Shown here: positions 14,570 to 44,690 of the stretch, piece by piece
How positions within the stretch are numbered: the first letter of the stretch is position 1
How the letters are laid out: each line of letters starts with the position of its first letter
Made by a program: the position numbers and the translations under genes
Notes under the pieces: generated by a model
Database searches by the model: none
What the model was told of the DNA's origin: nothing
Seen by the model: only the letters and a program-made list of their open reading frames with translations
Assembly: GCA_023898465.1 (NCBI GenBank)
Contig: CP060223.1
Coordinates: forward strand, 256,001-320,000
Source: Candidatus Nomurabacteria bacterium
Lineage (GTDB): Bacteria > Patescibacteriota > Patescibacteriia > HK-STAS-PATE-3
Length of the DNA: 64,000 nt
Reading direction: 5' to 3'

Positions 14570-14894
14570 TACTTGACAACCCACTTCACAGGAGTACACT
14601 AAATGCACAATTGGTGGCGATCTCTGCCTGGCACTGACCAGGATGTCTGGAGACGCCATGTTTTTGTATAGGCGTATTCCACCCTCCCTTGCCGTGGCGT
14701 TGGGGAGCGCGGAATAGTTCCGGGCTTCATTTCCTCACATGAGGAAAGCGGCTTTGTTGCCGTTTTGCACTTTGAAATGCATGGAGGTTCGCCATGACTT
14801 GGCGTTTCCGACTCTTCCTGCTCATGGCCATCGCGTTGACCATGACACCCCTCGCTTTCATGACCGGCTGTCAGGAGCTGCCGACGGAGGGGGA
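14570..14894 (+). repeat. Copy B of the duplicated promoter + leader + lipoprotein signal-peptide module
   Basis: See copy A. The two copies are offset by 3597 nt at the 5' end. The first 33 codons (MTWRFRLFLLMAIALTMTPLAFMTGCQELPTEG) are identical at protein level. Confidence 0.9.
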
Positions 14895-15492
14895 GACTTC
14901 GGTGATCTCTGATGAGTTGCCGGATGCTTCACCCTCAGCTCAGTCAAGCCCGATGACTTGGCCCTCTTCGATCCAGGATTTCAAACTCCCTTATGATGGG
15001 ATCCGGGATGCATGCGGGGGTCAGATTTGGAAGGTTGTTTGCGGGTACGGATGTGGTTATCATCACAACACAAACTACATGGCCGCCGCGTACCATTCGA
15101 TTGATCTTGTACGGCAGGATGCGCCGACCACTCATAGCGCAGTACTCGCTCCGGCGCGTGGCATCGTTTCGTTTGTCGGATGGAGGAATGGGTACGGTTG
15201 GTGCGTGGAGATGGATCATCGAAACGGCTGGAAGTCGCTTGTGGCCCATCTCGAAACGGATCCTTGGGAATTCGTCCATACCTATGACGACCTGCGGCAG
15301 GGGACTTTCCTGGGCTATGCAGGGAACAGCGGAGCGAGTACGACACCCCACATTCACTTCTCGGTGTGGCGGAACAACGTCACTCATACGCTCGATGGCG
15401 TATCGTTGATCAACCCGCGTCTAAATGGGCGATACAATTCCGGCAATGATTATGTTGCGCCACCGACGGGAAATCCGAACCCGATTCCTTAA
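14794..15492 (+). CDS. Lipoprotein, M23 (LytM/lysostaphin-type) metallopeptidase
   Basis: The N-terminal 33 aa are the same as in the CHAP protein. GNSGASTTPHIHFSV matches the M23 HxH motif. An upstream YHSIDL stands where HxxxD is expected, with spacing one residue short. Confidence 0.8.
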   Translation: MTWRFRLFLLMAIALTMTPLAFMTGCQELPTEGETSVISDELPDASPSAQSSPMTWPSSIQDFKLPYDGIRDACGGQIWKVVCGYGCGYHHNTNYMAAAYHSIDLVRQDAPTTHSAVLAPARGIVSFVGWRNGYGWCVEMDHRNGWKSLVAHLETDPWEFVHTYDDLRQGTFLGYAGNSGASTTPHIHFSVWRNNVTHTLDGVSLINPRLNGRYNSGNDYVAPPTGNPNPIP

Positions 15493-15668: not shown

Positions 15669-16682
15669 ATGAATCGTTTTTCTATCTTCATCGCAGTGTT
15701 CGTTCTTATCAGCGCAGTGGTTTATGCTTTCTTTTTTGCTACATTATTTGGGGAAAAGAAAGCTATTGAAGGAGTGCAGGGACCTGCTTTTATGTTTGCA
15801 ACCCTGCCTGACTCAGATGCATCTGCCGCGATAAGCATTTTTGAGATTCCTACAATGTCGAAGCGAAAGGCTGAAGACACATCTTTGCCAATGCATTTTC
15901 TTAAAAAACTAGGAGATCCGAGAGAGTATTTTGATCCCATACTTTCTTCAAGTGGTGCATATTTGGCTTTTAATCGTAATATTGGGGAGCCGAAACAGGA
16001 TAAGACAAATTTAGTAATACTTGCAGCTGACGGAAAAGAAAGGAGCGTGGAGAGCGGCTCTGCTGGAGATATAGGAATAGGAATGCTCACGCCCTTGCAG
16101 TGGAGTGCTGATGAAAAAACGCTCTACGCTTTTTATACACACGCAACTGAAGGTAATATCGTAGGCCTGGTGGCAATTGATGTGGCAACTTTAAGCCAAC
16201 AACGAATTGAAAAAATTGATGATCTACGTGTAAGTAACTACGTCTTTGATGAAGTCGGAAATACCTACGGTTTTGAACCGCACTATCGATTCCGCCCTGA
16301 AGACGAGGCTCAAACAACCTTTTATCGAATTTCTTTGACTAGTGGCGAAACAAAAAGCTTTACACTCCAGCAATCGAGTTTGGACGATCTCTTGACCGTA
16401 GATCCAAGCGGGAGATACCTCGTGTACGCAAACGGAGATGATTTTAATTCTCGTAACATTTGGATGTATGACATGGAAACCGGTGAGGAGCGCGCGTTGA
16501 CTGAAAATGCTGTTGTTAATGAAATTTTGCCCTGGAAAGATGGATATTTGGTATTTCTGGAGGAAAGTGTAAACACCCCCGCAGAAAAAACACTTGTATC
16601 ATACGATGTAAATTCTGGCATTCGCAAAGTTCTTTTAGAAAATGTTACAGGGACGTTCCGGCTTCTTGGTTGGTATCCCTAA
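15669..16682 (+). CDS. Membrane-anchored beta-propeller-like protein (TolB/PD40-like repeats)
   Basis: 337 aa with an N-terminal TM helix. Repeated D-P-S-G-x-Y-L-(V/A)-(Y/F) type segments (LSSSGAYLAFN, DPSGRYLVYANGD...IWMYDMETGEERALT) resemble WD40-like/PD40 blades. Confidence 0.5.
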   Translation: MNRFSIFIAVFVLISAVVYAFFFATLFGEKKAIEGVQGPAFMFATLPDSDASAAISIFEIPTMSKRKAEDTSLPMHFLKKLGDPREYFDPILSSSGAYLAFNRNIGEPKQDKTNLVILAADGKERSVESGSAGDIGIGMLTPLQWSADEKTLYAFYTHATEGNIVGLVAIDVATLSQQRIEKIDDLRVSNYVFDEVGNTYGFEPHYRFRPEDEAQTTFYRISLTSGETKSFTLQQSSLDDLLTVDPSGRYLVYANGDDFNSRNIWMYDMETGEERALTENAVVNEILPWKDGYLVFLEESVNTPAEKTLVSYDVNSGIRKVLLENVTGTFRLLGWYP

Positions 16683-16940
16683 TTTCATATATCAGTTGGG
16701 AGGTTTTTATTAAACCTTGCCCCTCCCCTTAAAAAGTGGTATAGTCATTGAGCTATTCTGAATATCTCAATATTCTAGCAACCGCGTGAAAATGTCAGCA
16801 AAAACAGACATCGCGGAGGGGGAAATCACTCAAGAGCAGCACATACTCTTGTATACTCAAGCGTCCCTAGTAAAAAGGGATGTTTTTTGTGTGCAAAGTA
16901 GCCTCGTAGCTGCCACAAGTTCTGAAAGGAGCGAAGGCGC

Positions 16941-17600
16941 ATGTTAGGTTATCTTTTGCTCATTATATCGGTTGTAGAGTTTTTTATTGGCCTGTACCTT
17001 ATTTTTCGCTATGAAAAAAGCCAGGCAACAACATATTACGGTCTCTTTGCAATAAGTGTTGCGATCTATGTTGCCGCGAACGGTTTCGGATTTACCCGAG
17101 CTTCTGATAACGAGTTTATTTTTGAGCAACTTGCTTGGTTTGGCGGCTTACTTAGCGCCCCATTTATCCTTGGCTTCAGTTATAGCTTTCCTAGCCCTAA
17201 AAAATATCCCACTGAGCTATTTCCGTGGGTAATTTGGCCAGTAGTGTTATTTGGCGCAGGAATTTTTACTTCAAATATTTTCCTGGAGAAAACGTATATT
17301 TATTCCTTTGCCGAAGGCTACACTGCGCCAATCGGTGTCTTTTTCTGGTTCGCCATTGCAGTATTTGCGATGTATTGGATATGGGCAATACGAAACCTGC
17401 TGTATACGAGATTGCACACAAGCGGTTTTTATAGGAATTTTCTTACCATTGTGCTCATAGGGCTTTTTTCATCACTGCTTATTTCAGCAATTTTTGATAT
17501 TTACATTCCCTTAGTTTCAGTCACGCGCTACGGATATATTGGAGCATTATTCTCGTCTATTTGGCTGTTTACTACCGCGTATTTAATGGTGAGGAAGTAA
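16941..17600 (+). CDS. Stand-alone 7TM module, paralog 1 (histidine-kinase N-terminal 7TM-like)
   Basis: 219 aa with about 7 hydrophobic helices. Aligns by eye with the first 230 aa or so of the kinase at 23014. Ends ...TTAYLMVRK* where the kinase reads ...ISYAIIRHR and continues. Confidence 0.8.
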   Translation: MLGYLLLIISVVEFFIGLYLIFRYEKSQATTYYGLFAISVAIYVAANGFGFTRASDNEFIFEQLAWFGGLLSAPFILGFSYSFPSPKKYPTELFPWVIWPVVLFGAGIFTSNIFLEKTYIYSFAEGYTAPIGVFFWFAIAVFAMYWIWAIRNLLYTRLHTSGFYRNFLTIVLIGLFSSLLISAIFDIYIPLVSVTRYGYIGALFSSIWLFTTAYLMVRK

Positions 17601-17601
17601 G

Positions 17602-18261
17602 ATGATTGGATATATATTACTCATTATCTCAGTTGTTGAAGTAATACTCGGTTTTTATTTGATTTTTCGATATGTAAAAAGTCCAGCAACTATATATTAC
17701 GGCCTATTCGCGCTAAGTGTAGCACTCTATGTAGGTGCAAACGGGTATGGTTTTAGTCCGTTTTCAGAAAATGATATATGGCTGGAAATAATTGCCTGGA
17801 TTGGCGGGACCTTTACCGCTCCTTTTATTCTTGGCTTCAGTTACTCATTCCCTTATCCACGTAAGTCCAATAAGGAAATACTGTCTTTAGTTCTTAGTCC
17901 ACTCGTTTTTTTCTTCGTCGTAATACTTTTTTCTAATACTTTTGTAGATCATAATAGTGTTATCAGCTTTGATGAAGGATTTCAAAGACCTGTCGGGGAG
18001 TTACACTGGTTTGTATTATCAGTATTCTTTTTCTATTGGGTTTGGTCTTTTATTGAACTAGTAAAGAGTCGAAAAAAATCCGACGGCTTTAATAAGAATT
18101 TTCTTCTTATTTTAATTATAGGCTTAGTTTTTTCTTTGTTGGTTTCGGTATTTACTAACATCATTCATCCACTTGTCGATGTTTCAAAGTTAGGTTATAT
18201 GGGCCCCTTAGCCTCTTCAATCTGGCTATTTATTACTGGGTACTTGATATTGAGGAAGTAA
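17602..18261 (+). CDS. Stand-alone 7TM module, paralog 2
   Basis: 219 aa, collinear with paralog 1 (LLIISVVE..YLIFRY.KS.AT.YYGLFA, APFILGFSYSFP, SSIWLF). Starts 1 nt after the upstream stop. Confidence 0.8.
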   Translation: MIGYILLIISVVEVILGFYLIFRYVKSPATIYYGLFALSVALYVGANGYGFSPFSENDIWLEIIAWIGGTFTAPFILGFSYSFPYPRKSNKEILSLVLSPLVFFFVVILFSNTFVDHNSVISFDEGFQRPVGELHWFVLSVFFFYWVWSFIELVKSRKKSDGFNKNFLLILIIGLVFSLLVSVFTNIIHPLVDVSKLGYMGPLASSIWLFITGYLILRK

Positions 18262-18932
18262 TGAACACCTTTCATTTAGTTTTACTTTTTACACTTTTCT
18301 TTATTCACGCGACTCTCGCAATATGGATGTTGCGTAGATATGTGCAGACGCTATCCATTCGTTATTACTCAGGCTTTTTATTTGGACTAGCACTTATTGC
18401 ACTATTAAATGGTTTATTGCTGTTATTTGGCGGTCAGGAGAGTCAAACAGTCCTTCATAAGATCGGCTTTATCTCAGGCACCTTCACTTTTGTGATGTTC
18501 TTTATGTTTAGTAAGTACTTTCCAATTTCTACTGCAAGACCAAACTCCCGCGACATTCTTTTTTGGGTAATTCCGATTACATTTTTTATTCCATTCATAC
18601 TTTTTAATCAGCAGTTTATCCAGTCTGTGATTATAGAAAATGGAATAAGTAAGCCTACATTTGGAGTCTGGTATACACCATTTATGTTAGTTTTGGCCAC
18701 CTTTGTTCTGGGGGCTATCTATAATCTCATACAGAAATATAAAATAACCACTGAACTTGAAATTAGGAAGAACATTAGAGACATTACGGCAGTATTTTTC
18801 GTATCAGGACTCCTTGGCTTTTTGTTGGACGTTGTGTTGCCAAGGTTTAATGTTTATACGGCACATTACTTTGCCATTGAATCTTCACTTTTTGTTGCGC
18901 TAACTACTGCAATTATTATTGCAAAGAAGTAA
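18261..18932 (+). CDS. Stand-alone 7TM module, paralog 3 (divergent)
   Basis: 223 aa with the same helix layout. TAATG overlap with paralog 2. Ends ...AIIIAKK*. Confidence 0.75.
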   Translation: MNTFHLVLLFTLFFIHATLAIWMLRRYVQTLSIRYYSGFLFGLALIALLNGLLLLFGGQESQTVLHKIGFISGTFTFVMFFMFSKYFPISTARPNSRDILFWVIPITFFIPFILFNQQFIQSVIIENGISKPTFGVWYTPFMLVLATFVLGAIYNLIQKYKITTELEIRKNIRDITAVFFVSGLLGFLLDVVLPRFNVYTAHYFAIESSLFVALTTAIIIAKK

Positions 18933-18933
18933 G

Positions 18934-19605
18934 ATGAAAGAGTTTCTCATCATTGCAAATTATCTGGTTGGAATAGGGGAGTTGATGCTCGCTGGATATT
19001 TTTGGAAAACAAACAGCGGCAGCGCAATTCGGAAGGTGATGGTGTTGTTGGCGTTTTCGACTGGTATGTGGGTCATTTTTACCGGAACCTTTACCTACCG
19101 CTGGATTTTGCTTGATTACTTTGATCTCGGCATATCATTTGTATATTTCTTTGGAATTTTGTTCCTTACCGCCTTACTTCATTTAGTAATTCTCTTTCCT
19201 CACAAGATTTTCCCGTTTGATAGGCTACATACAGTTTTGTTGTATATTCCAACACTCATATTAGGTTTTGCCGCTTTTACTCCAGCGATAATTAAAGAAA
19301 ATATCACTCCGTCGAGCGGGTATACCACAAGTTATCCCGGACCAGCACATTGGATGTTTAATAGCTATCTTTTTCTCATGTATGCAATGGTGATAATCCT
19401 ACTCATTGTTAAGATCAAGCGTTTTGATGGATTTAGCAGAGATAACGCAAAAACTTTGCTTTGGGGTATTATTTTAGGCGGCCTACCCATCGTTTTCTTA
19501 GATTTGGTTTTGACAACTTTGGGCATCTACCCAAATGCTGCCGTTGCCAGCCTTTTCACAGTTGTCTGGCTTGGGTTTACTACTTACATAATTGTACGGA
19601 AATGA
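18934..19605 (+). CDS. Stand-alone 7TM module, paralog 4
   Basis: The ATG at 18934 lies 1 nt after the paralog 3 stop (ORF track start is 18919). Ends ...TTYIIVRK*. Confidence 0.75.
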   Translation: MKEFLIIANYLVGIGELMLAGYFWKTNSGSAIRKVMVLLAFSTGMWVIFTGTFTYRWILLDYFDLGISFVYFFGILFLTALLHLVILFPHKIFPFDRLHTVLLYIPTLILGFAAFTPAIIKENITPSSGYTTSYPGPAHWMFNSYLFLMYAMVIILLIVKIKRFDGFSRDNAKTLLWGIILGGLPIVFLDLVLTTLGIYPNAAVASLFTVVWLGFTTYIIVRK

Positions 19606-20288
19606 ACGGAGAAATAGTATTTTTTGATTTAATTTTACTTAGCGTTGTTGGATTATTAGAATTAGCCTTTGGGATTTATTTAATAGTCCGTTATGTGAGG
19701 ACAAGTTCGATAGTATTTTTTGCACTTTTCGTTTTCTTTCTTTCTTTGTGGGTGCTTACAAATGCGGCTGCTTTCGTAATACCAATACATAATGTCTTCT
19801 TTGATATTGATTCAAAGTTGAGTTTTGTTTTTGCAATATTACTTTTTCCAGCGCTATACTTATATGTAATTAATTTTCCCATCCCTACAATATTAATAAA
19901 TTGGCGTTTAATACTTTTTGTGTTTACTGCGCCAATACTTCTTAGTACAATGATTTTAGGGTCGGGAACGGTTGTATTTGGATTTGATAAATTGATAGAG
20001 AATCAGCCAACTATATTTGGAGAAGCTTTTTGGGCCTATTCTTTTTATATGTTGTTCATGTATGCAATTATTTTATTTGAATTAATAAGGCAGATTAATA
20101 AGTCCAAGGGTTCTCACAGATGGTATGCACAAATTTTATTTTTTGCTGTTTTCATTTCTGGCGCAATAGGGCTATTATTTAATCTTGTTCTGCCTTCGAT
20201 GTTCGATATTAGAATTGCTTATTGGATAGCCCCATCTAGTTCAATTATTTGGCTTGCTCTTGTTTGGTGGGCGACGCAGAGGAAATAA
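19602..20288 (+). CDS. Stand-alone 7TM module, paralog 5
   Basis: ATGA overlap with paralog 4. The ORF track start at 19461 runs inside paralog 4. Ends ...SSSIIWLALVWWATQRK*. Confidence 0.75.
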   Translation: MNGEIVFFDLILLSVVGLLELAFGIYLIVRYVRTSSIVFFALFVFFLSLWVLTNAAAFVIPIHNVFFDIDSKLSFVFAILLFPALYLYVINFPIPTILINWRLILFVFTAPILLSTMILGSGTVVFGFDKLIENQPTIFGEAFWAYSFYMLFMYAIILFELIRQINKSKGSHRWYAQILFFAVFISGAIGLLFNLVLPSMFDIRIAYWIAPSSSIIWLALVWWATQRK

Positions 20289-20290
20289 TT

Positions 20291-20959
20291 ATGGATTATG
20301 GTGTATACTTATTATTAGTTATTGCGGGCCTAGAACTTTGGTTGACAATATACATATTTACTCGCTACCAAAGAACAAAAGCTATTTTTTTCTTTGGACT
20401 CTTTACTGCTTGTGTGACTGGATGGGTGCTAACTAATTCTATTCCGCTTCTTTTTTCCTATTCAAGTTGGCAATCTGATTTTTTGCAACGCCTCTCGTTT
20501 TCTTTTGCTGCATTTATTTTTCCTTTTCTTTATTATTATATTCTTTTACATCCATTTCCAAGCATTGATATCAACAAGCGATTCATATTATTCACATCCC
20601 TCCCGGCCTTCTTTGTTTCTATTGCCACTCTCTTTGATAAAAACTTTGTTATAGGATTCTATGATACCTCAGTAAGGGCAACAATATACGGCGACTCTTT
20701 TTGGATGTATGCGGTAGTTATGTTGCTATTTGCAATTCTTATTCCTGTGGAAATAATTTTAAAAAGAAGAAGACTGGATGGATATTATCGCTACCAATTC
20801 AAATTATTATTCAGCGCCTATTTGTTTTCAGCGGCAGTAGGATTACTAATTAATTTAATATTGCCATATTTTTTCGACTTAAAAATTAACTATTGGCTTG
20901 GGCCCGCGTCATCGATTATTTGGGTGAGTATGGTTTGGTGGGTTATTAATAGAAGGTAA
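20291..20959 (+). CDS. Stand-alone 7TM module, paralog 6
   Basis: The ATG lies 2 nt after the paralog 5 stop. Closest to paralog 5 (..ASSIIWVSMVWWVINRR*). Confidence 0.75.
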   Translation: MDYGVYLLLVIAGLELWLTIYIFTRYQRTKAIFFFGLFTACVTGWVLTNSIPLLFSYSSWQSDFLQRLSFSFAAFIFPFLYYYILLHPFPSIDINKRFILFTSLPAFFVSIATLFDKNFVIGFYDTSVRATIYGDSFWMYAVVMLLFAILIPVEIILKRRRLDGYYRYQFKLLFSAYLFSAAVGLLINLILPYFFDLKINYWLGPASSIIWVSMVWWVINRR

Positions 20960-20981
20960 TGTTTAATTGCGATTTTCAAAA

Positions 20982-21641
20982 ATGACAATAGGACATGTAG
21001 TTGAAGAATTTAAAAGTCGGTATATTAAAAGACAACTAGATCATAATTTTATTGTTTTAGAGACTCAAAATAACAACCAACTAAATTTATCATATAGATT
21101 AAGATACGAAGTATATTGTCTAGAATGTAAATATTTAGACGTGAATAATTATCCCAATAGGTCTGAAAAGGATGAGTATGATGATTGTTCAATACATTTC
21201 ATCGCAATAAATAAAAAGACAAAAAATGTTGTTGGCACAATTCGACTTATTAAACGCACTAATAGGAATTTGCCAATAGAGCATGATTTTGGAATTTCTC
21301 TGAATGGATCAATTAGTTCTAAAAAAGTTGTGGAGATTTCTAGACTAGCGGTTGATAAAAAATTTAGGAAGTCGAGTTTAAAGCATCCAAGTATTATGTT
21401 AGGTTTATTAAAAGCATGCTATAGATACGCCGAAGAAAATGGAATTGCAATGTTTGTAGCGGCAATAGATCAAAATGTATATAATATGTTAAAAAAGTTT
21501 CGTTTTTCATTTAATTTATTAGGGGAACCAAAACATTATATGGGTTCAATCTCAGTACCCGTGTTAATTGATATCGAAAAAGAATCGCAGTGGTTAAAAA
21601 TAGTAAATCCTGGACTATGGACATTTCTTTCAAGCAATTAG
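20982..21641 (+). CDS. GNAT-fold N-acyl amino acid / acyl-homoserine-lactone-synthase-like acyltransferase (FeeM / PEP-CTERM-associated acyltransferase-like)
   Basis: LSYRLRYEVYCLECKYLD, IHFIAI...VVGTIRLI, VVEISRLAVDKKFR and MFVAAID follow the pattern I recall for the LuxI-related Acetyltransf_5/N-acyl amino acid synthase family. The ORF track starts at the TTG at 20967; the ATG at 20982 is preferred. Confidence 0.55.
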   Translation: MTIGHVVEEFKSRYIKRQLDHNFIVLETQNNNQLNLSYRLRYEVYCLECKYLDVNNYPNRSEKDEYDDCSIHFIAINKKTKNVVGTIRLIKRTNRNLPIEHDFGISLNGSISSKKVVEISRLAVDKKFRKSSLKHPSIMLGLLKACYRYAEENGIAMFVAAIDQNVYNMLKKFRFSFNLLGEPKHYMGSISVPVLIDIEKESQWLKIVNPGLWTFLSSN

Positions 21642-22276
21642 CTCATAAAATTGTATTATTCTATTTAAGACGGGCTAGCCACAAAAAATACCTAACATTT
21701 AGCTTTAGCGATCTTATTATACTCTGTCCCCCAAACGTGTTCCCGCCTAATTCGTTTACCACTGACCTAATGGCTAAGTGGCTAGTAAACGAAGAGATGG
21801 AAGGTAAACAGGTTTTAGAGATGGGTTGTGGAAGTGGATACATTTCGATTATTGCCGCACGAAAAGGGGCAAAAGTAATTGCAAGCGACATCAGCCCTAT
21901 CGCGGTTGATGCCGCAAAAATCAATACCATAATAAATAAGATAAAAAATGTCGAATGTTATTGCTCGGACTTATTTTCTAACTTAGAAGGAAAGTTTGAT
22001 TTAATTCTCTTCAACGCACCTTTTTTTCATGGAGAACCCACTTCTTTATTAGATAACAATTGGATGAGTAAGGATGGGGAGGTGGTCAGTAAATTTTTTA
22101 AAGACGCAAGAGAATATATTAATCCAATGGGGAAGGTAGTTATTACTAGTTCGACTCTAGTTAATCAAGATGCTCTGAAAATATTAATTAAAGAAAGCGG
22201 ATTTAATATTGAAAACGTGAAAACAAAAAATATTATTATTGAAAAATTTTTCTTGTATGAATGTAGAGCTTTTTAA
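21617..22276 (+). CDS. Class I SAM-dependent methyltransferase (HemK/PrmC-like amino-methyltransferase pattern)
   Basis: Motif I is VLEMGCGSGYISI, the acidic loop is ASDIS, and motif IV is FNAPFF (an NPPY-like variant). The start is ambiguous (GTG at 21590 or ATG at 21617) and overlaps the upstream gene. Confidence 0.7.
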   Translation: MDISFKQLAHKIVLFYLRRASHKKYLTFSFSDLIILCPPNVFPPNSFTTDLMAKWLVNEEMEGKQVLEMGCGSGYISIIAARKGAKVIASDISPIAVDAAKINTIINKIKNVECYCSDLFSNLEGKFDLILFNAPFFHGEPTSLLDNNWMSKDGEVVSKFFKDAREYINPMGKVVITSSTLVNQDALKILIKESGFNIENVKTKNIIIEKFFLYECRAF

Positions 22277-23021
22277 TAGAAATCAACCATTTATAACTAA
22301 AAAAGAACAAAAAATTCTCACAAAACAGAAAGTTTGTTTTATTGGATGTGGTCTTGCAAGTCAAGCCGCACTCCTTATTGCCAGGACAGGTATTGGAAAA
22401 ATAGTACTTTGTGATGGAGACAAGGTCGAGTTGAGTAATCTTAACAGGCAAGCATTTGACATTGGTGATATTGGAGAAAACAAAGCAGAAAGCTTAATGA
22501 GAAAGATATTAAGCATCAATTCAAATATTGAAGTGGAGCAGTATCCGGTTTTTTTAAAAAAATCGATTATTTCAAATGTAATAAAAGATTCAGATATTGT
22601 AGTGAGCACAGTTGATGCGGGTCCTTTATATTTTGAAATTCAGGAATATATTAATAAAAAAGGCATTATGGGAATATTCCCCATGAATATTGCCTTTGGA
22701 TCACTCGTATTCGTATCAAAAAATGGAAAGGGTGATTTTAAATCGTTATTTGGGGAGAAATTACCTGAAAATAATTCTGAATTTTTTTATCAACTTTACA
22801 ATAAACTTAAACAAAATGTACCAAGCTATTTATCTCCTCATATTGAAATCTTATTAAGTGGATTTAAAACAAACAGTCCAATTCCACAGCTAGGATTAAC
22901 GACTTTACTTACCGCATCTTTGATTACTGAGATAATACTGGCTGGGAACAGGGCTGAGCAATTATTGTTAACTCCAAGATTCTATTATTTTGATATTCGT
23001 GAATTCGTTCGAAATGGATAA
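22257..23021 (+). CDS. ThiF/MoeB/HesA-family E1-like adenylyltransferase
   Basis: KVCFIGCGLASQAALLIARTGIGKIVLCDGDKVELSNLNRQ carries the canonical ThiF nucleotide-binding signature. The protein is about 254 aa with no rhodanese or CxxC tail. It overlaps both neighbours. Confidence 0.75.
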   Translation: MNVELFNRNQPFITKKEQKILTKQKVCFIGCGLASQAALLIARTGIGKIVLCDGDKVELSNLNRQAFDIGDIGENKAESLMRKILSINSNIEVEQYPVFLKKSIISNVIKDSDIVVSTVDAGPLYFEIQEYINKKGIMGIFPMNIAFGSLVFVSKNGKGDFKSLFGEKLPENNSEFFYQLYNKLKQNVPSYLSPHIEILLSGFKTNSPIPQLGLTTLLTASLITEIILAGNRAEQLLLTPRFYYFDIREFVRNG

Positions 23022-25785
23022 ATTGCTAATCCCACAAAATTTAGCACTTATTATATTGCTCTTCGGATATTTAAGTCTGATAATTCTTCTTTTGAGACGC
23101 GAGAACACAAGTAGTAGATTATTTGGTGCTACCGTTATTACTCTCTCTCTTTGGATATTATCAATTTTACTTTTAAATATCAGCTCCTCAAAAGAAGAAA
23201 TTTTATTCTTTTCGCGATCGTCATTTATCGGGCCAATTATTCTCATACCAACATTCCTTCTTTTTTCTTGGTATTTTCCGAAAAAAACTATACATCTAAG
23301 GAAAAGTATTATTATTGTCGTTTCTTTAACGGCATGCTTCTTTTTAATTGCGACGTTTACGCCGTATGTAATTCAAGATGTCACAATAAAAGTAGGTGAA
23401 GGAGTCAGTCTAACCTATCAACTTGGAACACTATATTTTTTCCAATTTATTTTTTTAGCATTCTCATTACTTTATTCTTTTTTTATTCTTTATAAAAAAT
23501 ATAAAAAATCAAAAGGCCTAGAAAAATTACAAATTAGATATCTTTTTCTTGGCACCGTTATTACTGCAGTATTGACCTTGAGTACTAACGTAATTTTACC
23601 AATTTTTAATTTTTCATCTCTTGCTGGATTTGGCCCTCTTAGTACTCTATTTCTCTTATTTTTTATTTCATATGCCATCATCCGCCACCGCCTCCTCGAC
23701 ATCCGTCTTGTTATCACGCGTTCCTTAATTTATTTTTTCCTTATCCTGTTCGTCGCAGGATCATTTACTGGAATTACCTTACTCGCAAAGTTATTATTTG
23801 AAGAATTTGTTGGTGAAATAACCGCTACAATACTTGTTTCTCTCATCATCGTTATTGGTTTCGAGCCATTGAAGCGATGGGTCTCTCGTTCTACTGACTC
23901 GGTTTTTTATAAGGCAAAAATTGACTACGCTGATGTGTTGCGGGAAATCAGCGAAATTATTAACCGTGAAATTGTCCTGGATCCGCTCGTCACCTCCATC
24001 AGCGCCACGCTTGAGAGTAGGCTCAAGCTCAAGCACGCGGGCATTGCATTGAAAAGCGCCAAGGGGGATTTTGTTGAATACATAAACCACGATCACTTTG
24101 ATCCCAAAACCTTTTCCAGCCGATCCGGTATGATCGGATTCTTACGTTTCACATCTCGTATCACCATTTTAGAATCGCTCGAGCGCAAAATTCAGGACAC
24201 GAGCGAAGGGGACGAATTAAAAGAGTTGAAGCGATCGCGCGAGGAAATGGAAACGAACCACATTGCCTTAGCTGCTCCGATTGTGGCGCAAGGCAAATTC
24301 AACGCAGTCCTCATCCTGGGGCCGAAACTTTCCGGTGATAGCTTCTCGACCGAAGAGTTGAAGATGATTGAAACGTTGACTCCGCAGATCGGATCAGCGA
24401 TTGAGAAATCCATGCTCTTCGAAGAGGTGAAGAACTTCTCCAGTCAATTAAAGGTGAAAGTTGATGAGGCGACAAAGGAGTTGAAAGAGCGCAATCGTTT
24501 CCTTGGCGCTTTGCAGGATATCACGAGCACCATTACGCACTCTCTTGATTACAAAAAAGTAGGACAGGACATTGTGGACGGAGTAGCCAAGAAGCTCGGT
24601 TACATCGGTGCCGTGCTCCTGCTCTATGATCCAAAGACTGGCCAGTCATGGGCTGAGGCAATTACGCAAACGCCGGTTACTCGCGCGGCAATGAAATTAC
24701 TGCCCAAGCCGGTGAACGAATACCATGGGCACGTGGATGAGAATTCCATGACCGACCAAGTTATTTTGACTGGTGAAATGCGCGAAAGTGATTCACTAGC
24801 TGAATTCTTAGCACCGGCCGTGCCTAAAGCTTTTTGTTTCGCCATGCAGAAGTTGATTCGCGCAAAGTATATTGTGGCAGTGCCAATCTATGCCGAGGGT
24901 GAAATTCTCGGTGCCTTGGTTTTTGTGCTCGGGAAGAAGAAAGAGGAGATCAGTAGTCAGGAGCGGGCTATGATGATCGCTTTAGGTGACCAGGCCGGAA
25001 TCGTGCTGCACAATATTAAACTCTTTGATCGCATCCAGGATACGAATAAGCAGTTGGAGCAGGCGAATGAACACTTGAAGCAGCTTGATCAAGCTAAGTC
25101 GGAATTCGTCTCCATTGCCTCGCACCAATTACGCACGCCGATGACTGGCATTATGGGCTATCTTTCCATGATGGTGCAGGGGGATTTCGGTAAAATGGAG
25201 CCGGAGCACACCAAACTGCTGACTGAATTGTTGAGTGAGAGTCAGCGCATGATTCGTCTCATCAACCTCTTCTTGAACGTCTCAAAGATTGAGTCAGGTA
25301 AGATGACGATTAACAAGCAGCCGACGCAGATTAAGGATCTCATTGACCAACAGATTAAGGATCAGAAAAAGCCAGCCGAGGATAAAGGATTGGTGCTGAA
25401 AGTGGAAGTTGATAAAGAGCTGCCGATAATTGAAGCTGACGGTGATAAGCTCATGAACGTGGTGCAGAACCTGATTGATAACGCTATCAAATATACAGAG
25501 CGGGGAAGCGTGACTGTTCGCGCCTTTCAGACCGATGGCCATATCCAGGTAGAAATTCAAGACACTGGCGTTGGTATTAAGCGCGAAGATGTGCATGAAC
25601 TCTTTGGTAAGTTTGTGCGCGGGTCTGGCATTGCGCAGATCAATCCTGATGGCTCCGGTCTCGGACTCTTTATTGCCAAGTCAATTGTGGAAATGCACGG
25701 CGGTAAGATTTGGGTAGAATCAGAAGGTGAAGGGAAAGGTACTAAATTCGCATTCACGATACCAATTACACAGCCGAAAAAATGA
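23014..25785 (+). CDS. Sensor histidine kinase: N-terminal 7TM module + GAF-like regions + HisKA + HATPase_c
   Basis: About 230 aa of 7TM region, then long soluble GAF-like regions. H-box FVSIASHQLRTPMT, N-box NLIDNAIKYT, G-boxes DTGVGI and GSGLGL. The ATG at 23014 overlaps the ThiF stop by 8 nt. Confidence 0.9.
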   Translation: MDKLLIPQNLALIILLFGYLSLIILLLRRENTSSRLFGATVITLSLWILSILLLNISSSKEEILFFSRSSFIGPIILIPTFLLFSWYFPKKTIHLRKSIIIVVSLTACFFLIATFTPYVIQDVTIKVGEGVSLTYQLGTLYFFQFIFLAFSLLYSFFILYKKYKKSKGLEKLQIRYLFLGTVITAVLTLSTNVILPIFNFSSLAGFGPLSTLFLLFFISYAIIRHRLLDIRLVITRSLIYFFLILFVAGSFTGITLLAKLLFEEFVGEITATILVSLIIVIGFEPLKRWVSRSTDSVFYKAKIDYADVLREISEIINREIVLDPLVTSISATLESRLKLKHAGIALKSAKGDFVEYINHDHFDPKTFSSRSGMIGFLRFTSRITILESLERKIQDTSEGDELKELKRSREEMETNHIALAAPIVAQGKFNAVLILGPKLSGDSFSTEELKMIETLTPQIGSAIEKSMLFEEVKNFSSQLKVKVDEATKELKERNRFLGALQDITSTITHSLDYKKVGQDIVDGVAKKLGYIGAVLLLYDPKTGQSWAEAITQTPVTRAAMKLLPKPVNEYHGHVDENSMTDQVILTGEMRESDSLAEFLAPAVPKAFCFAMQKLIRAKYIVAVPIYAEGEILGALVFVLGKKKEEISSQERAMMIALGDQAGIVLHNIKLFDRIQDTNKQLEQANEHLKQLDQAKSEFVSIASHQLRTPMTGIMGYLSMMVQGDFGKMEPEHTKLLTELLSESQRMIRLINLFLNVSKIESGKMTINKQPTQIKDLIDQQIKDQKKPAEDKGLVLKVEVDKELPIIEADGDKLMNVVQNLIDNAIKYTERGSVTVRAFQTDGHIQVEIQDTGVGIKREDVHELFGKFVRGSGIAQINPDGSGLGLFIAKSIVEMHGGKIWVESEGEGKGTKFAFTIPITQPKK

Positions 25786-26216
25786 AACAGGTAAGGGGGA
25801 AACAACCAAAACGCATCCTACTTGTCGAGGACGAGCCGCTCTTAGCAACGATGTATATGTTGGCGTTGCAGCAACGAGTAAAGGCTGAGGTGTACGGGGC
25901 TAAGACACGCGAAGAAGCGGAGCGCATTATTGAGCGTGTGAAGCCGGATTTAGTGCTGCTTGATCTCATGATTCCCTCGATTACCATCCAAGACACGGAG
26001 CAGGATTTTCATCATCCAGTAGGGCTGCAATTCTTAGCCCAAATTCGGAAGAGTCCAAAGACGCGTTCAATCAAGGTAATGATTCTCTCCAACCTTGATG
26101 CGGATGAGCAACGCAAGCGGGCCATTGATTTAGGTGCCGAGGATTACCTATTAAAAGCCAGTCTGCAGCCGCACGCGATTGTGGAAAAGGTAAAGCATAG
26201 TTTAGGGATAAAATAA
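25782..26216 (+). CDS. Stand-alone response-regulator receiver (CheY-like) protein
   Basis: ILLVEDEP, DLVLLDLMIP and a lysine in ..LLKAS. There is no output domain. ATGA overlap with the kinase stop. Confidence 0.85.
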   Translation: MKQVRGKQPKRILLVEDEPLLATMYMLALQQRVKAEVYGAKTREEAERIIERVKPDLVLLDLMIPSITIQDTEQDFHHPVGLQFLAQIRKSPKTRSIKVMILSNLDADEQRKRAIDLGAEDYLLKASLQPHAIVEKVKHSLGIK

Positions 26217-39666: not shown

Positions 39667-42600
39667 ATGGACTCTGCCCCATTAACACTACAAACGAAGA
39701 CACTGCAGAGGTCTTCCGATCTAAATAATTACAGACTCTATCGCGCAGCTCTTGAATGGGAGTTGATTGATCCTATTGTCATAGAAGACCGGGATGACAT
39801 GCATTCCGAAAGTAGTTGGCGTGATCGTCTTGAGCCGTATCATCATCAAGTAACTAACCTAATAACTTTTTGTCGTCGCCTACCTGTTACTTTACTGGCG
39901 GATGATGTCGGGTTAGGAAAAACAATTAGTGCTGGCCTAGTTTTAAGCGAGTTAATTTCGCGCGGGAGAATTTCAAAAATATTAATAGTTTGCCCAAAAA
40001 TACTTCGAGATCAGTGGAAAGAAGAATTGGAAATAAAGTTCCGAATTCCGTCCACAATTGTGACAGGAAGAGAATTAATTACGGCAAAGCCTCCTGAAGA
40101 ACCAGGAGCGGTAATTACCACATACAATACGGCCAGACTGTATTTAGATAGAATTGACCAGAATGGTTTTGAAATATTGATACTTGATGAGGCGCATAAA
40201 TTGCGGAATCTATATGGTGTTGACCCAACACCTCAAGTTGCAATTAAATTCCGTAAAGCTCTGGCTGACCGGATGTTTAAGTACGTATTAATGTTAACTG
40301 CAACGCCGATCCAGAACAGACTATGGGATCTCTACTCGTTGGTTGACTTATTAACCGTTGCACGCGGCCATGAAAATCCCTTTGGAACGCCAGGTATTTT
40401 TGCGAGAAAATTTATTGCAGATAGTCGCACACAAGCGCGTCAGCTTAATCCGGAGATGCGGGATGAGTTTCGCTCAATTATTTACGGTTATATGTCTCGG
40501 GTTCGTCGTGGAGATGCAAAACTCCACTTCCCAGAGCGGGTAGTACAGTTGCATAAAGTTGACCCAACACCAGAAGAATTGCAGTTGATCGGTGTGGTCG
40601 GAAAATCTATACAACAACTGAATGCGCTTACACAAATTGTAATCCTCCAAGCTTTGGTGAGTAGTCCAGAAGCGCTAATAAAGATGTTAGAAGGAATGGC
40701 TAAAAAAGGAACCGTACCGCGTGAGGTGTTGGCGAACGTTAAGGAATCAGCCAAAGAAATTCAAATCACTACAAAACTAAAAGGTTTGGGCGCGTTAGTT
40801 GAAAAACTTAGAAAGGAGCAACCCAATACTTGGCGGGTGGTAGTTTTTACAAGATGGCGAGAAACTCAAACAACTATCGAAACTTTTCTTGAAAAGCAAG
40901 GAGTAAAATGCGGCTTGATAAATGGCGATTCAAGTAAGCGAAATCAGGAAACAATCCAAAGATTTAAAAAAGACTTACCAGACATTAATGTAATTATTTC
41001 TACTGAAGCAGGTTCGGAGGGCGTTAACCTTCAGGCCGCTAATGTTTTGGTTAATTACGATCTCCCCTGGAATCCAATGATAGTGGAACAAAGAATAGGT
41101 CGTATTCAAAGACTTGCTTCTAATTATGCAAATGTTTCTATTTTTAATATTGTTTTGCAAAATACCTTTGAAGAATATATTGTAGGGCGCTTGATGGAAA
41201 AGTTGCAGATGGCTTCTCATGCAATTGGGGATATTGAAGCACTATTGGAAGCATCCGGCATTGATGAAGGTGAAGAAAATGGCTCAAGTGGTTTTGAAGA
41301 AAAAATTCGCCAGTTAGTAGTTGCATCTTTAGCTGGAAAAGATGTTGAGCAGGCAACTCGTAAAGCTGAACAGAGTATTTCAGAAGCTAAAACAGAATTA
41401 GACCATGAAGAAAAGAACATTAATGCTTTACTTGGGGGGATGAGTGATTCTCTAGATTCTGGTCCAAGATGTCCGAAGCTTCCTCAAACTACTAAGTCGA
41501 TGGATGTCCGTGATTTTACTACGGCTGCTCTTATGAGCTTAGGCGCGGAACTACATCCAAAAAAGGATGGTTTATTAGTTTCACAACTTGCTGGGAAAAA
41601 AGAATTAATCCGATTTGATAATAACACTCTGAGCAGTGAAGAGGAGAGTGTCTTATATGCACCGGGAACTTCAACTTTTGAACGCTTAGTCCATAAAGTT
41701 GCAAATGTAGGAAAACACATTGTTGAAGACCTTGATAAAAACCCCCAACAGCAAATTGAGAAAGTAAGTCGTCAATGGGTCGAAAGTTTTGGCGGAGACT
41801 TCGAAAATGTAACGGTAGAGGACGTTTCTCGATGTTTTGCAGGAGTAGCAATAATTCGTGCAAGATCAACAGTAGCTCACGATAGTTATGAGCGTCTCAT
41901 TGAGGTTTCGTGCGCTCCCACTGAGCATTTCAGTTTTGTGACAAGAACGGGATTGGAACCCATCGGAGACTATATTGAAAATCCGACATCTGTTGGTGCG
42001 CTTTCAGAAAAATTAATTGAAAAAGCCAGCCAAGACTCGAGTATTCTTGAGTTCTGTAGATTTTATTTAGAACGAAGATCTCAAGAAATTGCCTCCGCAG
42101 GAAATGACGAAAGAAAAAAGAAAAAGCTTGAGGATGAGTTTACGCCCCGTCTTGAATTTTCCCTAGTCGGTCTTGAGGGCAAGGTTCATCGGATAGTTAA
42201 AAATCAGGTCTCTTATAGAATTGAACGTGAGGGCCAATACAAAAGTACCCTCATGATAACCCCCTCTTCTGGGCAAGTTGATATGCCGGGGATGGGACAA
42301 TGCATGAAAACAGGTAAGACTGTACCGAGCGATTGCTTAGCAAAGTGCGAAATAAGCGGACTTATAGTATTGCGGCATTTTCTTGATCAATCAGAGATCA
42401 GTAATCGACTGGCGCTCCCTGAGCACATCGTTTTATGTACGTTAAGCAACAAGCGAGTGCTAGCGGACGAAGCTATAAAATCAGATGTTACGGGCAAACT
42501 AGTCGCAAAGAAGTTTTTAAAAACATCTTCTCTGAGTGGCAAATTCGCTGAACCACAGTTCATTAACACTTGTGAGTTTACAAAAACAGAAGTTCTGGAA

Positions 42601-43194
42601 AGCGAAATTGCGGTCAGCCAGATTTCAGGAAAAAGATATCGCATTGATGAGCAACTTAAATCCGCAGTTTCAGGAAAACTAGGCCATCGACAAGAATTTG
42701 TAGCAAGTAGTATTTCATCAGCCCCACTTCTTGAAGAAGAAGCCATTCGTTCGGTCACTGGAAAATTTTGTGCACCAATGGAAGCGAGGCCCTGCACTTG
42801 GAGTGGTCGAAAGTGTCACCCCGAAGACCTTAGGACTTGCGAGTTGACCGGAGTCCAAATTCATTCAGAGTACGTAACGCTCGAACCACCAATTCGTTTA
42901 GAAACCCTAAATAATCTTTTGAATGGCACGAGGAGCAAATCTGACAAATTGGAAGTATGGCCTTCACTTTCAAATAGCGTTACAGCTTTATTAAAAGCAA
43001 AACGTTGTAAAATTGAAACAGCAGAAGTTTCACCTAGTGACGATATTTTGGCCGCTTCTATAGAGCTTCGAACTTTTCTAGGCCTGCGCGTGAGTCACAT
43101 TGGCGTACTTTATTCAATAAAGGATGGATCCGTAGTCGGGCGTGTTGCTAGAGGCAAGCGTGGTGATAAGGGCTGGAATCAAACTAAGAACTAA
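39667..43194 (+). CDS. SNF2-family helicase/translocase with a long C-terminal extension containing 15-residue repeats
   Basis: Motif I LADDVGLGKT, motif II LILDEAHKLRN, motif III LMLTATPIQN, helicase-C STEAGSEGVNLQ and QRIGRIQRL. About 650 further aa follow. AT-rich relative to the flanks. Confidence 0.85.
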   Translation: MDSAPLTLQTKTLQRSSDLNNYRLYRAALEWELIDPIVIEDRDDMHSESSWRDRLEPYHHQVTNLITFCRRLPVTLLADDVGLGKTISAGLVLSELISRGRISKILIVCPKILRDQWKEELEIKFRIPSTIVTGRELITAKPPEEPGAVITTYNTARLYLDRIDQNGFEILILDEAHKLRNLYGVDPTPQVAIKFRKALADRMFKYVLMLTATPIQNRLWDLYSLVDLLTVARGHENPFGTPGIFARKFIADSRTQARQLNPEMRDEFRSIIYGYMSRVRRGDAKLHFPERVVQLHKVDPTPEELQLIGVVGKSIQQLNALTQIVILQALVSSPEALIKMLEGMAKKGTVPREVLANVKESAKEIQITTKLKGLGALVEKLRKEQPNTWRVVVFTRWRETQTTIETFLEKQGVKCGLINGDSSKRNQETIQRFKKDLPDINVIISTEAGSEGVNLQAANVLVNYDLPWNPMIVEQRIGRIQRLASNYANVSIFNIVLQNTFEEYIVGRLMEKLQMASHAIGDIEALLEASGIDEGEENGSSGFEEKIRQLVVASLAGKDVEQATRKAEQSISEAKTELDHEEKNINALLGGMSDSLDSGPRCPKLPQTTKSMDVRDFTTAALMSLGAELHPKKDGLLVSQLAGKKELIRFDNNTLSSEEESVLYAPGTSTFERLVHKVANVGKHIVEDLDKNPQQQIEKVSRQWVESFGGDFENVTVEDVSRCFAGVAIIRARSTVAHDSYERLIEVSCAPTEHFSFVTRTGLEPIGDYIENPTSVGALSEKLIEKASQDSSILEFCRFYLERRSQEIASAGNDERKKKKLEDEFTPRLEFSLVGLEGKVHRIVKNQVSYRIEREGQYKSTLMITPSSGQVDMPGMGQCMKTGKTVPSDCLAKCEISGLIVLRHFLDQSEISNRLALPEHIVLCTLSNKRVLADEAIKSDVTGKLVAKKFLKTSSLSGKFAEPQFINTCEFTKTEVLESEIAVSQISGKRYRIDEQLKSAVSGKLGHRQEFVASSISSAPLLEEEAIRSVTGKFCAPMEARPCTWSGRKCHPEDLRTCELTGVQIHSEYVTLEPPIRLETLNNLLNGTRSKSDKLEVWPSLSNSVTALLKAKRCKIETAEVSPSDDILAASIELRTFLGLRVSHIGVLYSIKDGSVVGRVARGKRGDKGWNQTKN

Positions 43195-43195
43195 T

Positions 43196-44686
43196 ATGAA
43201 CCCTCTACTTACAAAAACCGATTATCTTCTTTACCGGGAATGCCCAAAGAATGTTTGGTATAAAATCCAAAAACCTGAATTGTATGCTACATCGGAGCTA
43301 ACAGAGTTTGAAAAATCGATAATGGAAACAGGTAATGAGGTTGAAAAGATTGCAAGGCAACTTTTTCCAAACGGGGTGTTAGTAACTTATCGTGATGCGC
43401 GCGGTCAAGCTGAGACACAAAAGCTATTGGCGGAGAACAAGGATGTGATTTTTCAGCCAGTTTTTGTCAAAAATAACTTTTTGGCTGCTATTGATGTTCT
43501 ACAAAAAGAAAAGAATGGCAAGGGCTACAATGTTTACGAAATAAAATCGACTAGTGATGTAGATAAGAAAACACATTTTCACGACCTAGCATTTCAAGTA
43601 AACGTTCTCAGAATGACAGGCCTGGGAATTAATAAATCATTTGTCATTCATCTAAACTCTGAATATATTCGAAAGGGAGAAATTGAGCTGGATCAGTTAT
43701 TTAAAGTATCAGATGTGACGGATGAAGTAGAAAGTCTTTTACCGGATGTTGCGACTGAGGCGGAAGAAGCATTGAAGTATATTAGCCAAACTTCTGAACC
43801 AGAGGGGTACTGCTGCTGTATTTATAAAGGTCGATCAAGGCATTGTTCAACCTTTCAGCTAGCGAACCCCGAAGTACCCGAATATAGTGTCCACGATATT
43901 TCTAGGATAGGGGTAAGCAAGGCTAAATTAAAAGAGCTAATTGACGGAAGTATTTTTCACCTGGACAAGATTCCGCCACACATTAAATTAAGCGAAATTC
44001 AACAAGGTCAAGTTGAAACCTATAAATTGAATAAGGTATTAGTAGATAAGGAAAGAATTGCGGAAGAATTTAGTGGTCTCACATTCCCACTTTATTTTCT
44101 TGATTATGAAACATTTCCATCAGCAATACCAAGATATGATGGCTTTTCACCATATAAACAAATTCCGTTCCAGTATTCTGTTTACAAACTAGATTCAGTC
44201 GAGAGTGAGCCAACTCATTTTGATTTTTTGTACTCTGGTCCCGAAGACCCCAGCAAGCACTTTGCCGAGTCTTTAAGGGAACATATCGGGGATAAAGGCT
44301 CGATCATCGTTTGGCATAAAGACTTCGAGTGTGGCAGAAATAATGAAATAGGTAGTCGAATTCCTACTTCGAAGGCTTTTTTTGACTCTGTTAATCAGCG
44401 AGTATACGATCTCGAAGACATTTTCAAGAAACAATACCACGTTCATCGAGATTATAAGGGAAGCACATCTATTAAAAACGTATTGCCTGTTTTAGTGCCA
44501 GAATTAACGTATAAAGACCTTGAAATTCGTGATGGTGGCAGTGCAGCGGATAGTTGGGACAAAATAATTAGTGGTGTATATAACGAGACAGAGAAAGAAA
44601 AGGTAATAAAAGATTTAAAGATTTATTGTGGTCTTGATACATTTGCAATGTATGCTATTTGGAATTGCTTGAACAAGCTACTCTAA
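43196..44686 (+). CDS. DUF2779-like dual nuclease (N-terminal Cas4/RecB-like PD-(D/E)XK with Cys cluster + C-terminal DEDD-type exonuclease-like half)
   Basis: The ATG lies 1 nt after the SNF2 stop. YRECPKNVW ... AAIDVL ... VYEIKS ... GYCCCIYKGRSRHC gives a D..ExK motif plus four Cys. The C-terminal half has YFLDYET, WHKDFE, and YCGLDTFAMY. Confidence 0.65.
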   Translation: MNPLLTKTDYLLYRECPKNVWYKIQKPELYATSELTEFEKSIMETGNEVEKIARQLFPNGVLVTYRDARGQAETQKLLAENKDVIFQPVFVKNNFLAAIDVLQKEKNGKGYNVYEIKSTSDVDKKTHFHDLAFQVNVLRMTGLGINKSFVIHLNSEYIRKGEIELDQLFKVSDVTDEVESLLPDVATEAEEALKYISQTSEPEGYCCCIYKGRSRHCSTFQLANPEVPEYSVHDISRIGVSKAKLKELIDGSIFHLDKIPPHIKLSEIQQGQVETYKLNKVLVDKERIAEEFSGLTFPLYFLDYETFPSAIPRYDGFSPYKQIPFQYSVYKLDSVESEPTHFDFLYSGPEDPSKHFAESLREHIGDKGSIIVWHKDFECGRNNEIGSRIPTSKAFFDSVNQRVYDLEDIFKKQYHVHRDYKGSTSIKNVLPVLVPELTYKDLEIRDGGSAADSWDKIISGVYNETEKEKVIKDLKIYCGLDTFAMYAIWNCLNKLL

Positions 44687-44690
44687 ACCT

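Follow-up and report, generated by a model that had tools for sequence, protein, structure and literature searches.

Introduction

Membrane domains of seven transmembrane (TM) helices, classified in Pfam as HisKA_7TM (PF16927) and 7TMR-DISM_7TM (PF07695), form the N-terminal regions of signalling proteins. HisKA_7TM is mentioned in the searchable literature only as a kinase sensor (PMC5847659), and work on 7TM kinases of archaea and bacteria reported a fold like that of G protein-coupled receptors (GPCRs) (PMC13581589). Here we describe six consecutive genes in which this domain makes up the entire protein (M1-M6, positions 16941-20959, + strand), found in a window of 64,000 nucleotides (nt) from Candidatus Nomurabacteria bacterium (GenBank assembly GCA_023898465.1, contig CP060223.1, positions 256,001 to 320,000). 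Coordinates are positions in this window unless another locus is named. The locus tags run from H6760_01290, and the same locus is present on a Logan contig of SRR12358676.

Two kinds of described system resemble parts of this locus. In staphylococcal agr, specificity groups differ in a hypervariable block of agrB, agrD and the sensor half of agrC, and the kinase half is conserved. In LiaF-LiaS, MgrB-PhoQ and BceAB-BceS, separate membrane proteins encoded beside a kinase modulate it through TM contacts.

In the candidate phyla radiation (CPR, Patescibacteria), genomes are tiny, the bacteria rely on hosts, and sensing is almost wholly unexplored. Candidate quorum sensing in CPR was published as 51 pairs of a CqsA homologue with a kinase and 18 pairs in which the kinase adjoins a LuxI homologue (Bernard et al., 2020; PMC7567580). 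Searched by terms, the paper returned no mention of '7TM', of free modules or of a boundary inside the kinase gene. No description of free 7TM module arrays was found in the searchable literature. The domain itself and the synthase-kinase pairing in CPR are already known; the stand-alone family, its tandem arrays with obligate linkage to one kinase orthogroup, and a cassette boundary inside the kinase gene with co-exchange of sensor and enzymes appear to be undescribed in that literature. An earlier note on this window knew of no description of the arrangement, which agrees with the searchable literature as regards the arrays; the adjacency of synthase and kinase is published for CPR genomes (PMC7567580).

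Homology and fold of the free modules

The six genes are packed on one strand and have 219, 219, 223, 223, 228 and 222 codons (M1, 16941..17600; M2, 17602..18261; M3, 18261..18932; M4, 18934..19605; M5, 19602..20288; M6, 20291..20959). Their junctions of +1, -1, +1, -4 and +2 nt indicate co-transcription or translational coupling. The start of M4 was set at ATG 18934 (223 aa; +1 junction to M3) because homologues align from there. Use of an upstream TTG would give M4 228 codons, and the public gene call (P0003, 206 aa, start 18985) looks truncated.

M1-M6 and the first ~235 residues of the histidine kinase encoded downstream form a collinear alignment. The free proteins terminate just past TM7 at R-K (K-K or R-R in M3 and M6), where the kinase reads ..IIRHRLLD and continues. 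Pairwise identity is 53% for M1/M2, 40% for M5/M6 and 16-28% for every other pair. HisKA_7TM (gathering cut-off 28.6 bits) was matched above the cut-off by M1 (34.6 bits) and M2 (41.1 bits) and below it by M4 (22.4 bits) and M5 (15.1 bits); M3 and M6 had no Pfam match. A profile hidden Markov model (HMM) built from eight kinase N-termini and nothing else recovered all six modules over their full length, with E values for a nominal database of 1e6 of 2e-9 to 5e-22 (M1 2e-9, M3 6.3e-11, M4 4.2e-11, M5 4.6e-12, M6 5.3e-11). Profile-profile alignment of the free family with kinase modules in hhalign gave a probability of 99.9% over 222 columns. On this sequence evidence the six genes are shown to be stand-alone members of an unnamed family of ~220 aa, whose homology to the HisKA_7TM sensor module spans its full length. 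By sequence they carry the same domain as HisKA_7TM and 7TMR-DISM_7TM. The Pfam description of HisKA_7TM as the N-terminus of a histidine kinase does not fit them, since they have no kinase domain, and they further differ from the kinase sensors in forming a separate clade, in a glutamate midway along TM1 and in their tandem arrays.

These results bear out the earlier note on gene sizes and packing (219-228 codons, junctions of -4 to +2 nt), on seven helices collinear with the kinase N-terminus (alignment, structure model of M2 and kinase-only profile), on the closest pairs, on the shared end point and on the Pfam family expected. A transporter or other 7TM family, which that note had named as the contrary outcome, was ruled out: Pfam and NCBIfam returned only HisKA_7TM/7TMR-DISM plus negligible matches (LIC10906 family, 15-17 bits against a cut-off of 200; TgpA_N, 19.9 bits).

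An AlphaFold2 model of M2 (predicted local distance difference test score 94.8) has helices at residues 2-23, 28-50, 58-82, 90-110, 135-159, 162-192 and 200-217. In fold comparison this model resembles receptor-type 7TM bundles, and the predicted fold is GPCR-like. Basic residues in loops 1, 3 and 5 and at the C-terminus point to an N-out/C-in topology, as read from the sequence. Two cytoplasmic-face motifs are common to free and kinase modules, FP-x-basic after TM3 and K-x4-D-G-x2-R between TM5 and TM6. The mid-TM1 glutamate (Glu13 in M2 numbering, 17638-17640) is E in 77% and D in 6% of free modules and is absent from kinase-attached modules; speculatively, it could contact the cationic head group of a ligand or else a partner helix. 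In TM7 the conserved positions are G201, S/T205, W208, L209, G210, T212, Y214 and I215, with conserved basic residues only at the cytoplasmic end. Microbial rhodopsin and heliorhodopsin were ruled out, as TM7 has no conserved retinal-binding lysine. Eukaryotic-type GPCRs share the 7TM fold, and their comparison with the free modules gave no sequence-level signal; to our knowledge the coupling partners of GPCRs are absent from bacteria.

Age and maintenance of the family

A profile of the free modules was searched against 1.84 billion representative proteins and gave 4680 matches at E<=1e-3, of which 108 reached E<=1e-30. Stand-alone proteins of 200-240 aa ending at the same point account for 107 of the 156 best matches, and the stand-alone relatives of ~220 aa fall into more than 100 clusters at 50% identity. 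In every source these relatives are annotated 'hypothetical protein'; the family supplies an annotation rule for several hundred of them.

In a rough, distance-based neighbour-joining (NJ) tree the free modules form their own clade, separate from kinase-attached modules. The clade splits into four subfamilies, arranged in the window as A, A, B, C, D, D. For all four, nearer relatives exist in other genomes than inside the window array: M3 (subfamily B) groups with L004_free1 and L007_free1, M4 (C) is 61% identical to P0005 from another metagenome, and M5 and M6 (D) have the orthologues P0013 and P0004. Part of the order recurs, as C-D-D, in L010, with the M5 orthologue P0013. The closest module pair is 59% identical in nucleotides, and third positions at conserved residues are 0.41-0.48 identical, which rules out recent tandem duplication or gene conversion. 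With third codon positions only 41-48% identical while the protein is kept, the duplications must be old and the proteins retained by selection.

The free modules are an old separate lineage and not recent detachments from the adjoining kinase. The earlier note had called them a maintained array of detached modules. Maintenance is borne out by the distinct clade with orthologous subfamilies, the randomised third positions, the stand-alone relatives and the recurring layout.

The operon in the window and in other Patescibacteria

The array is followed after 7 nt by five further + strand genes. These encode a FeeM/LuxI-like N-acyl amino acid synthase of GNAT fold (20967..21641), an S-adenosylmethionine (SAM)-dependent methyltransferase of HemK2/MTS type (21617..22276, start as in the public gene call), a ThiF/E1-like adenylyltransferase (22257..23021; Pfam ThiF 102 bits), the sensor histidine kinase of 923 aa (23014..25785) and a REC-only response regulator of 144 aa (25782..26216; Pfam Response_reg 59.7 bits), which overlaps the kinase stop by 4 nt. 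The kinase gene starts ~2 kb beyond the end of the array. Its product has a HisKA_7TM module (about 23047-23685 by HMM mapping), two more TM helices, two GAF-type regions, HisKA and HATPase_c.

Modules were mapped by HMM in 15 further loci besides the window. A locus search with an M4-type alignment yielded three genome loci and two short metagenome loci. The shared layout is one to six free modules, then one to four enzyme genes, then an orthologous kinase and usually then a REC-only regulator (directly 3' of the kinase in L002, L003, L012, L017 and L018). Modules, enzymes and kinase are in this order on one strand wherever the sequence suffices (L002, L003, L005, L006, L007, L012, L014, L015). 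L016, L017 and L018 have the same order and were found through the cytoplasmic half or C-terminus of the kinase, not through modules, which excludes biased sampling as the source of the linkage. Linkage to the kinase orthogroup is invariant in the 12 loci whose sequence extends far enough downstream of the modules. The window has the largest array seen, six modules; there are four in L007, L016 and L018, three in L006, L012/L013 and L017, two in L005 and L014, and one in L002 and L015. Arrays cut by a contig end have at least three (L004, L010) or at least two modules (L003, L008). The records are labelled Nomurabacteria, Kerfeldbacteria, Parcubacteria, Uhrbacteria or 'Patescibacteria group'. 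The array-enzymes-kinase layout is a rule for this kinase orthogroup in Patescibacteria and not a peculiarity of the window genome; the earlier note had proposed a survey for similar arrays beside 7TM kinases, and every related locus examined has the layout.

Some individual loci have features of their own. L006 (CAYGGC010000002.1), with three free modules, FeeM and kinase of the Patescibacteria type, comes from a metagenome-assembled genome labelled 'uncultured Gammaproteobacteria', which may be a binning or labelling error; two more unannotated open reading frames (ORFs) of 220-231 aa lie just upstream (L006 7108-8462). In L012 (13078-15736) the kinase is a soluble GAF-HisKA-HATPase protein of 498 aa without HisKA_7TM, and the genes ahead of it code for an unrelated multi-TM protein of 275 aa and a protein of 93 aa; three free modules are still present upstream. 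The array of L018 is headed by a 482-aa protein (L018 5016-6464) with one weak 7TM-module match (32 bits) and ~250 further residues; a clear fusion of two free modules was not upheld, as only the one weak match was found.

The enzyme genes are exchangeable, and four types were distinguished. Type I has a FeeM-like synthase with ThiF and/or a methyltransferase (window, L006, L014, L016, L017, L018), the pair of FeeM and ThiF being present also in L014, L016 and L018. Type II has a pyridoxal phosphate-dependent acyltransferase of the BioF/Kbl/SPT/CqsA family, alone or with an OleD/HpnA-like reductase as in L003 (L002, L003, provisionally L007). L007 has class IV and class I/II (PF00155) aminotransferases, and its placement is provisional. 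Type III has a methyltransferase and two proteins without a recognised family (L005, L015). Type IV has an S-adenosylmethionine decarboxylase, an EamA exporter and LPG_synthase_C, an aminoacyl-lipid enzyme (L012/L013).

The window synthase scored 139.6 bits on NCBIfam TIGR03694 (cut-off 111.95), 58 bits on Pfam FeeM and 47.3 bits on Autoind_synth (domain cut-off 24). It did not reach the LuxI-type acyl-homoserine lactone equivalog (TraI-type models, 44.3 against 250 and 40.3 against 292) and scored higher on FeeM and TIGR03694 than on these models. No exosortase, the context of TIGR03694, was found among the genes scanned in or beside the operon, to which the scan was confined. The methyltransferase scored 70.9 bits on Pfam MTS and 108.8 bits on NCBIfam TIGR00537 (cut-off 87). 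The L002 and L003 synthases scored 175-179 bits against the CqsA-type cut-off of 428 and 350-392 bits, also below cut-off, on BioF/Kbl; the BioF-like proteins fall short of all equivalog cut-offs, the CqsA type included. In types I, II and IV one of the enzymes links an amino acid to an acyl or lipid group, which suggests an amphiphilic, membrane-partitioning product. The likeness to the published CPR pairs lies in FeeM/LuxI-like or BioF/CqsA-family genes directly before the kinase; the difference is that the enzymes here fail the LuxI/TraI and CqsA equivalog cut-offs (PMC7567580).

Joint exchange of the enzymes and the kinase sensor half

Kinase orthologues are widespread in Patescibacteria (283 matches at E<=1e-50), and the nearest relative of the window kinase is only 65% identical in its C-terminal part. 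G+C content at third codon positions (GC3) is 0.28-0.43 in M1-M6, 0.22 in FeeM, 0.23 in ThiF and 0.33 in the methyltransferase. Within the kinase gene it changes from 0.28 in codons 1-290 to 0.56 in codons 291-923; by sliding windows it is 0.12-0.38 for codons 1-300, 0.48 at 271-330 and 0.47-0.68 from codon 301. The breakpoint between the low-GC3 cassette and host-like GC3 was placed at 23820..23915. GC3 of the regulator is 0.54, and the two nearest upstream genes of host-like composition have 0.56-0.62. As the change is at codon level, it is not due to the amino-acid content of membrane proteins.

A GC3 break within the kinase ORF, at the junction of membrane sensor and cytoplasmic part, was found in 10/10 loci (the window and nine others, among them L002, L003, L005, L006, L007, L016, L017 and L018), GC3 rising from about 0.3 to about 0.55-0.75. 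The minimum covers the enzymes and the kinase sensor, and GC3 often climbs through the free modules with distance from them. Measured against the window kinase, the 7TM module diverges about twice as fast as the body (median identity 31% against 50%), and in 23 of 95 orthologues the module is not alignable over 150 aa. Conservation restarts at the juxtamembrane motif YAI(V/I)RHRLLDIRLVITRSL.

The sensor module tracks the type of enzyme and not the kinase backbone. With 90% identity in the 7TM module and 62% in the body, the kinases of L005 (13347-16154) and L015 (5522-8353), both type III, show the usual pattern reversed, a sign that the cassette was exchanged together with the sensor half; those of L006 and L015 are 70% identical in the body and 32% in the module. 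All three sensors of type II group together. Nucleotide identity between L005 and L015 is highest, at 0.78-0.81, across the last enzyme gene and the 5' end of the kinase gene and drops to 0.46-0.55 right after the TM region. This identity profile, with the discordance of module and backbone, defines the exchanged unit as the enzymes plus the sensor half of the kinase. In these comparisons the enzymes and the kinase 7TM module are thus shown to behave as a low-GC3, fast-diverging block that has been exchanged between kinase backbones.

The block resembles agr in consisting of signal-making genes and the sensor half of a kinase with a boundary inside the kinase gene, in the co-variation of sensor and synthase type, and in its discordance with the kinase backbone; the GC3 break, the two discordant kinase pairs and the nucleotide profile agree on this. 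It is unlike agr in its probable products, acyl-amino compounds instead of peptides, in its sensor fold, and in divergence between genera, not strains; agr, moreover, has no free sensor paralogues. The locus thus shows a specificity cassette, with synthase and sensor half exchanged jointly, outside the peptide systems from which this pattern is known.

Kinases with several modules

Histidine kinases with complete 7TM modules in tandem were found, with four modules in P0009 (L011 8001-12488, 1495 aa), P0029 and P0100 and with two in P0084, P0096, P0112 and others. Their PAS/GAF-HisKA-HATPase regions are preceded by 14 or 28+ TM helices, and an extra hydrophobic linker helix gives all tandem modules one orientation. 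The gene after P0009 in L011 also begins with a 7TM module. The existence of these kinases shows multi-module sensors of this fold to be functional designs.

Proposed function and alternatives

The preferred reading, to which we give a probability of roughly 0.4, is that the free modules are accessory receptor subunits, acting in trans within a lipid-signal sensing cassette, that tune or widen the response of the kinase. The enzymes would make an amphiphilic acyl-amino compound, in the window an N-acyl amino acid that would be processed further by the methyltransferase and the E1-like adenylating enzyme. The product would enter the membrane and be read by the matching kinase 7TM module, as a self-made signal or as a cue to membrane state. 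The free modules in the same membrane would associate laterally with the kinase 7TM bundle. Signalling is favoured over a passive role because the cytoplasmic-face motifs held in common with the kinase module are kept, because four differentiated subfamilies stay in order, and because kinases with two or four complete tandem modules exist. LiaF, MgrB and BceAB are not homologous to the sensor domain of the kinase they modulate and form no paralogue arrays, and the free modules differ from them on both counts. The obligate 7TM heteromer GB1/GB2 of the GABA-B receptor offers a structural analogy only, at 6-11% identity and with no evidence of common descent.

Several points weigh against accessory subunits. 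Tandem modules fused in one kinase group, in the rough NJ tree, with kinase-attached and not with free modules, so the fusions prove multi-module sensors and not the fusing of free modules to kinases; the Rosetta-stone argument from tandem-module kinases holds only partly. Association of modules and kinase is suggested by gene linkage only. Neither the number nor the types of free modules correspond one-to-one to the enzyme type, and the modules are therefore not obviously matched to the product. That product is itself only inferred, with the window FeeM-like protein below the LuxI/TraI cut-offs and the BioF-like proteins below all equivalog cut-offs. The L005 and L015 free modules are only 0.55-0.58 identical in nucleotides, against 0.8 in the sensor, and lie largely outside the recently exchanged block; the free modules are older residents beside the exchanged unit. 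The low GC3 could also come partly from the local mutational regime rather than from transfer.

A more ambitious form of the proposal, which we regard as doubtful, is a modular hetero-oligomeric receptor of GPCR-fold subunits. The kinase-tied module would be matched to the self-made acyl-amino signal, and up to six free subunits of four old types would plug in for combinatorial sensing, for example of non-self signal variants or host lipids. The synthase-sensor cassette would be swapped between lineages in the manner of pherotypes. If true, receptor heteromerisation would have a counterpart in bacteria, and CPR bacteria would have a system of cell-cell or symbiont-host signalling that had gone unrecognised.

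Of the competing explanations, the one that survives best is that the free modules are ligand sinks, decoys or immunity proteins, which would bind the acyl-amino product or form non-productive hetero-oligomers with the kinase and so buffer, antagonise or protect. Antibacterial N-acyl amino acids are among FeeM-type products. The ligand-facing 7TM bundle is kept while the output domain is absent, several copies would add capacity, and the modules share the operon with the synthase. Candidate exporters in some cassettes (EamA in L012; a weak small-multidrug-export match in L014) further indicate that export is not the missing function. We nevertheless consider this unlikely: kept cytoplasmic-face motifs are unexpected for a pure sink, four old subfamilies in fixed order argue for differentiated roles over dosage, and the modules are not co-exchanged with the enzymes.

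Somewhat less probable still is lipid handling apart from the kinase, with the free proteins as flippases, exporters, scramblases or membrane scaffolds for an aminolipid or lipoamino acid. Their constant association with acyl-amino and aminolipid enzymes would fit, as would the lack of another obvious exporter in the window operon. Against it, Pfam and NCBIfam give no transporter family, the fold resembles receptor-type bundles, kinase sensor modules are the only detectable homologues, and modules also accompany cassettes without a recognisable lipid enzyme (L005, L015).

Autonomous receptors that use another partner, either the REC-only regulator directly or unlinked proteins, are improbable. 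The clade is separate from all kinase-attached modules, and the L012 kinase lacks HisKA_7TM although three free modules accompany it, both of which would suit such receptors. The proteins have, however, almost no cytoplasmic mass (R-K C-terminus, short loops) for contact with a soluble partner, and the kinase linkage in the 12 loci is invariant. Decayed duplicated kinases, against which the earlier note had argued, or a gene-calling artefact, compatible with homology to a kinase domain only, can be dismissed almost with certainty, given that there is no spare DNA between the genes, that all end at the same aligned position, that intact stand-alone relatives fill more than 100 clusters with subfamily orthologues across genomes, and that synonymous sites are saturated alongside a conserved protein.

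The family offers a tangible system in which the action of a sensor domain in trans, or its antagonism, can be tested. Through the conserved gene context, bacterial receptors of GPCR fold are linked to ligands of lipid type. The operon devotes about 4 kb of a 1.08-Mb genome to six sensor modules without a kinase and is therefore likely to be important to the bacterium.

Neighbouring genes and further observations

Upstream of the array, on the + strand, lies a gene for a 337-aa protein with an N-terminal TM helix (15669..16682), a possible conserved neighbour of the array whose membership is uncertain. Pfam gives nothing for it. A gene of 340-450 aa without a confident Pfam family has the same slot in L005, L007, L012, L014, L015, L016 and L017. 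The L005 counterpart has a sub-threshold PD40 match, with no stretch passing alone, and a weak 40-aa match to the window protein (E 5e-4). An M23 peptidase gene (14794-15492) precedes the 337-aa gene and the array, and M23 peptidases hold the equivalent position in several related loci (L002, L014, L017).

The intergenic stretch ahead of M1 (16717..16885, + strand) was examined by consensus scan only. It has a promoter-like site of the TG-extended kind (16717-16745) and a hairpin with a T-run (16859-16885); the number of sites is not above shuffled expectation, and for promoters and terminators alike the scan is at background level.

A second stretch of lower G+C content (about 0.41 against about 0.49) is present in the window at 39667-45392. 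It codes for a 1175-aa SNF2-family helicase, a 514-aa DUF2779 protein and a 233-aa protein without a family; the stretch is possibly a mobile or defence island.

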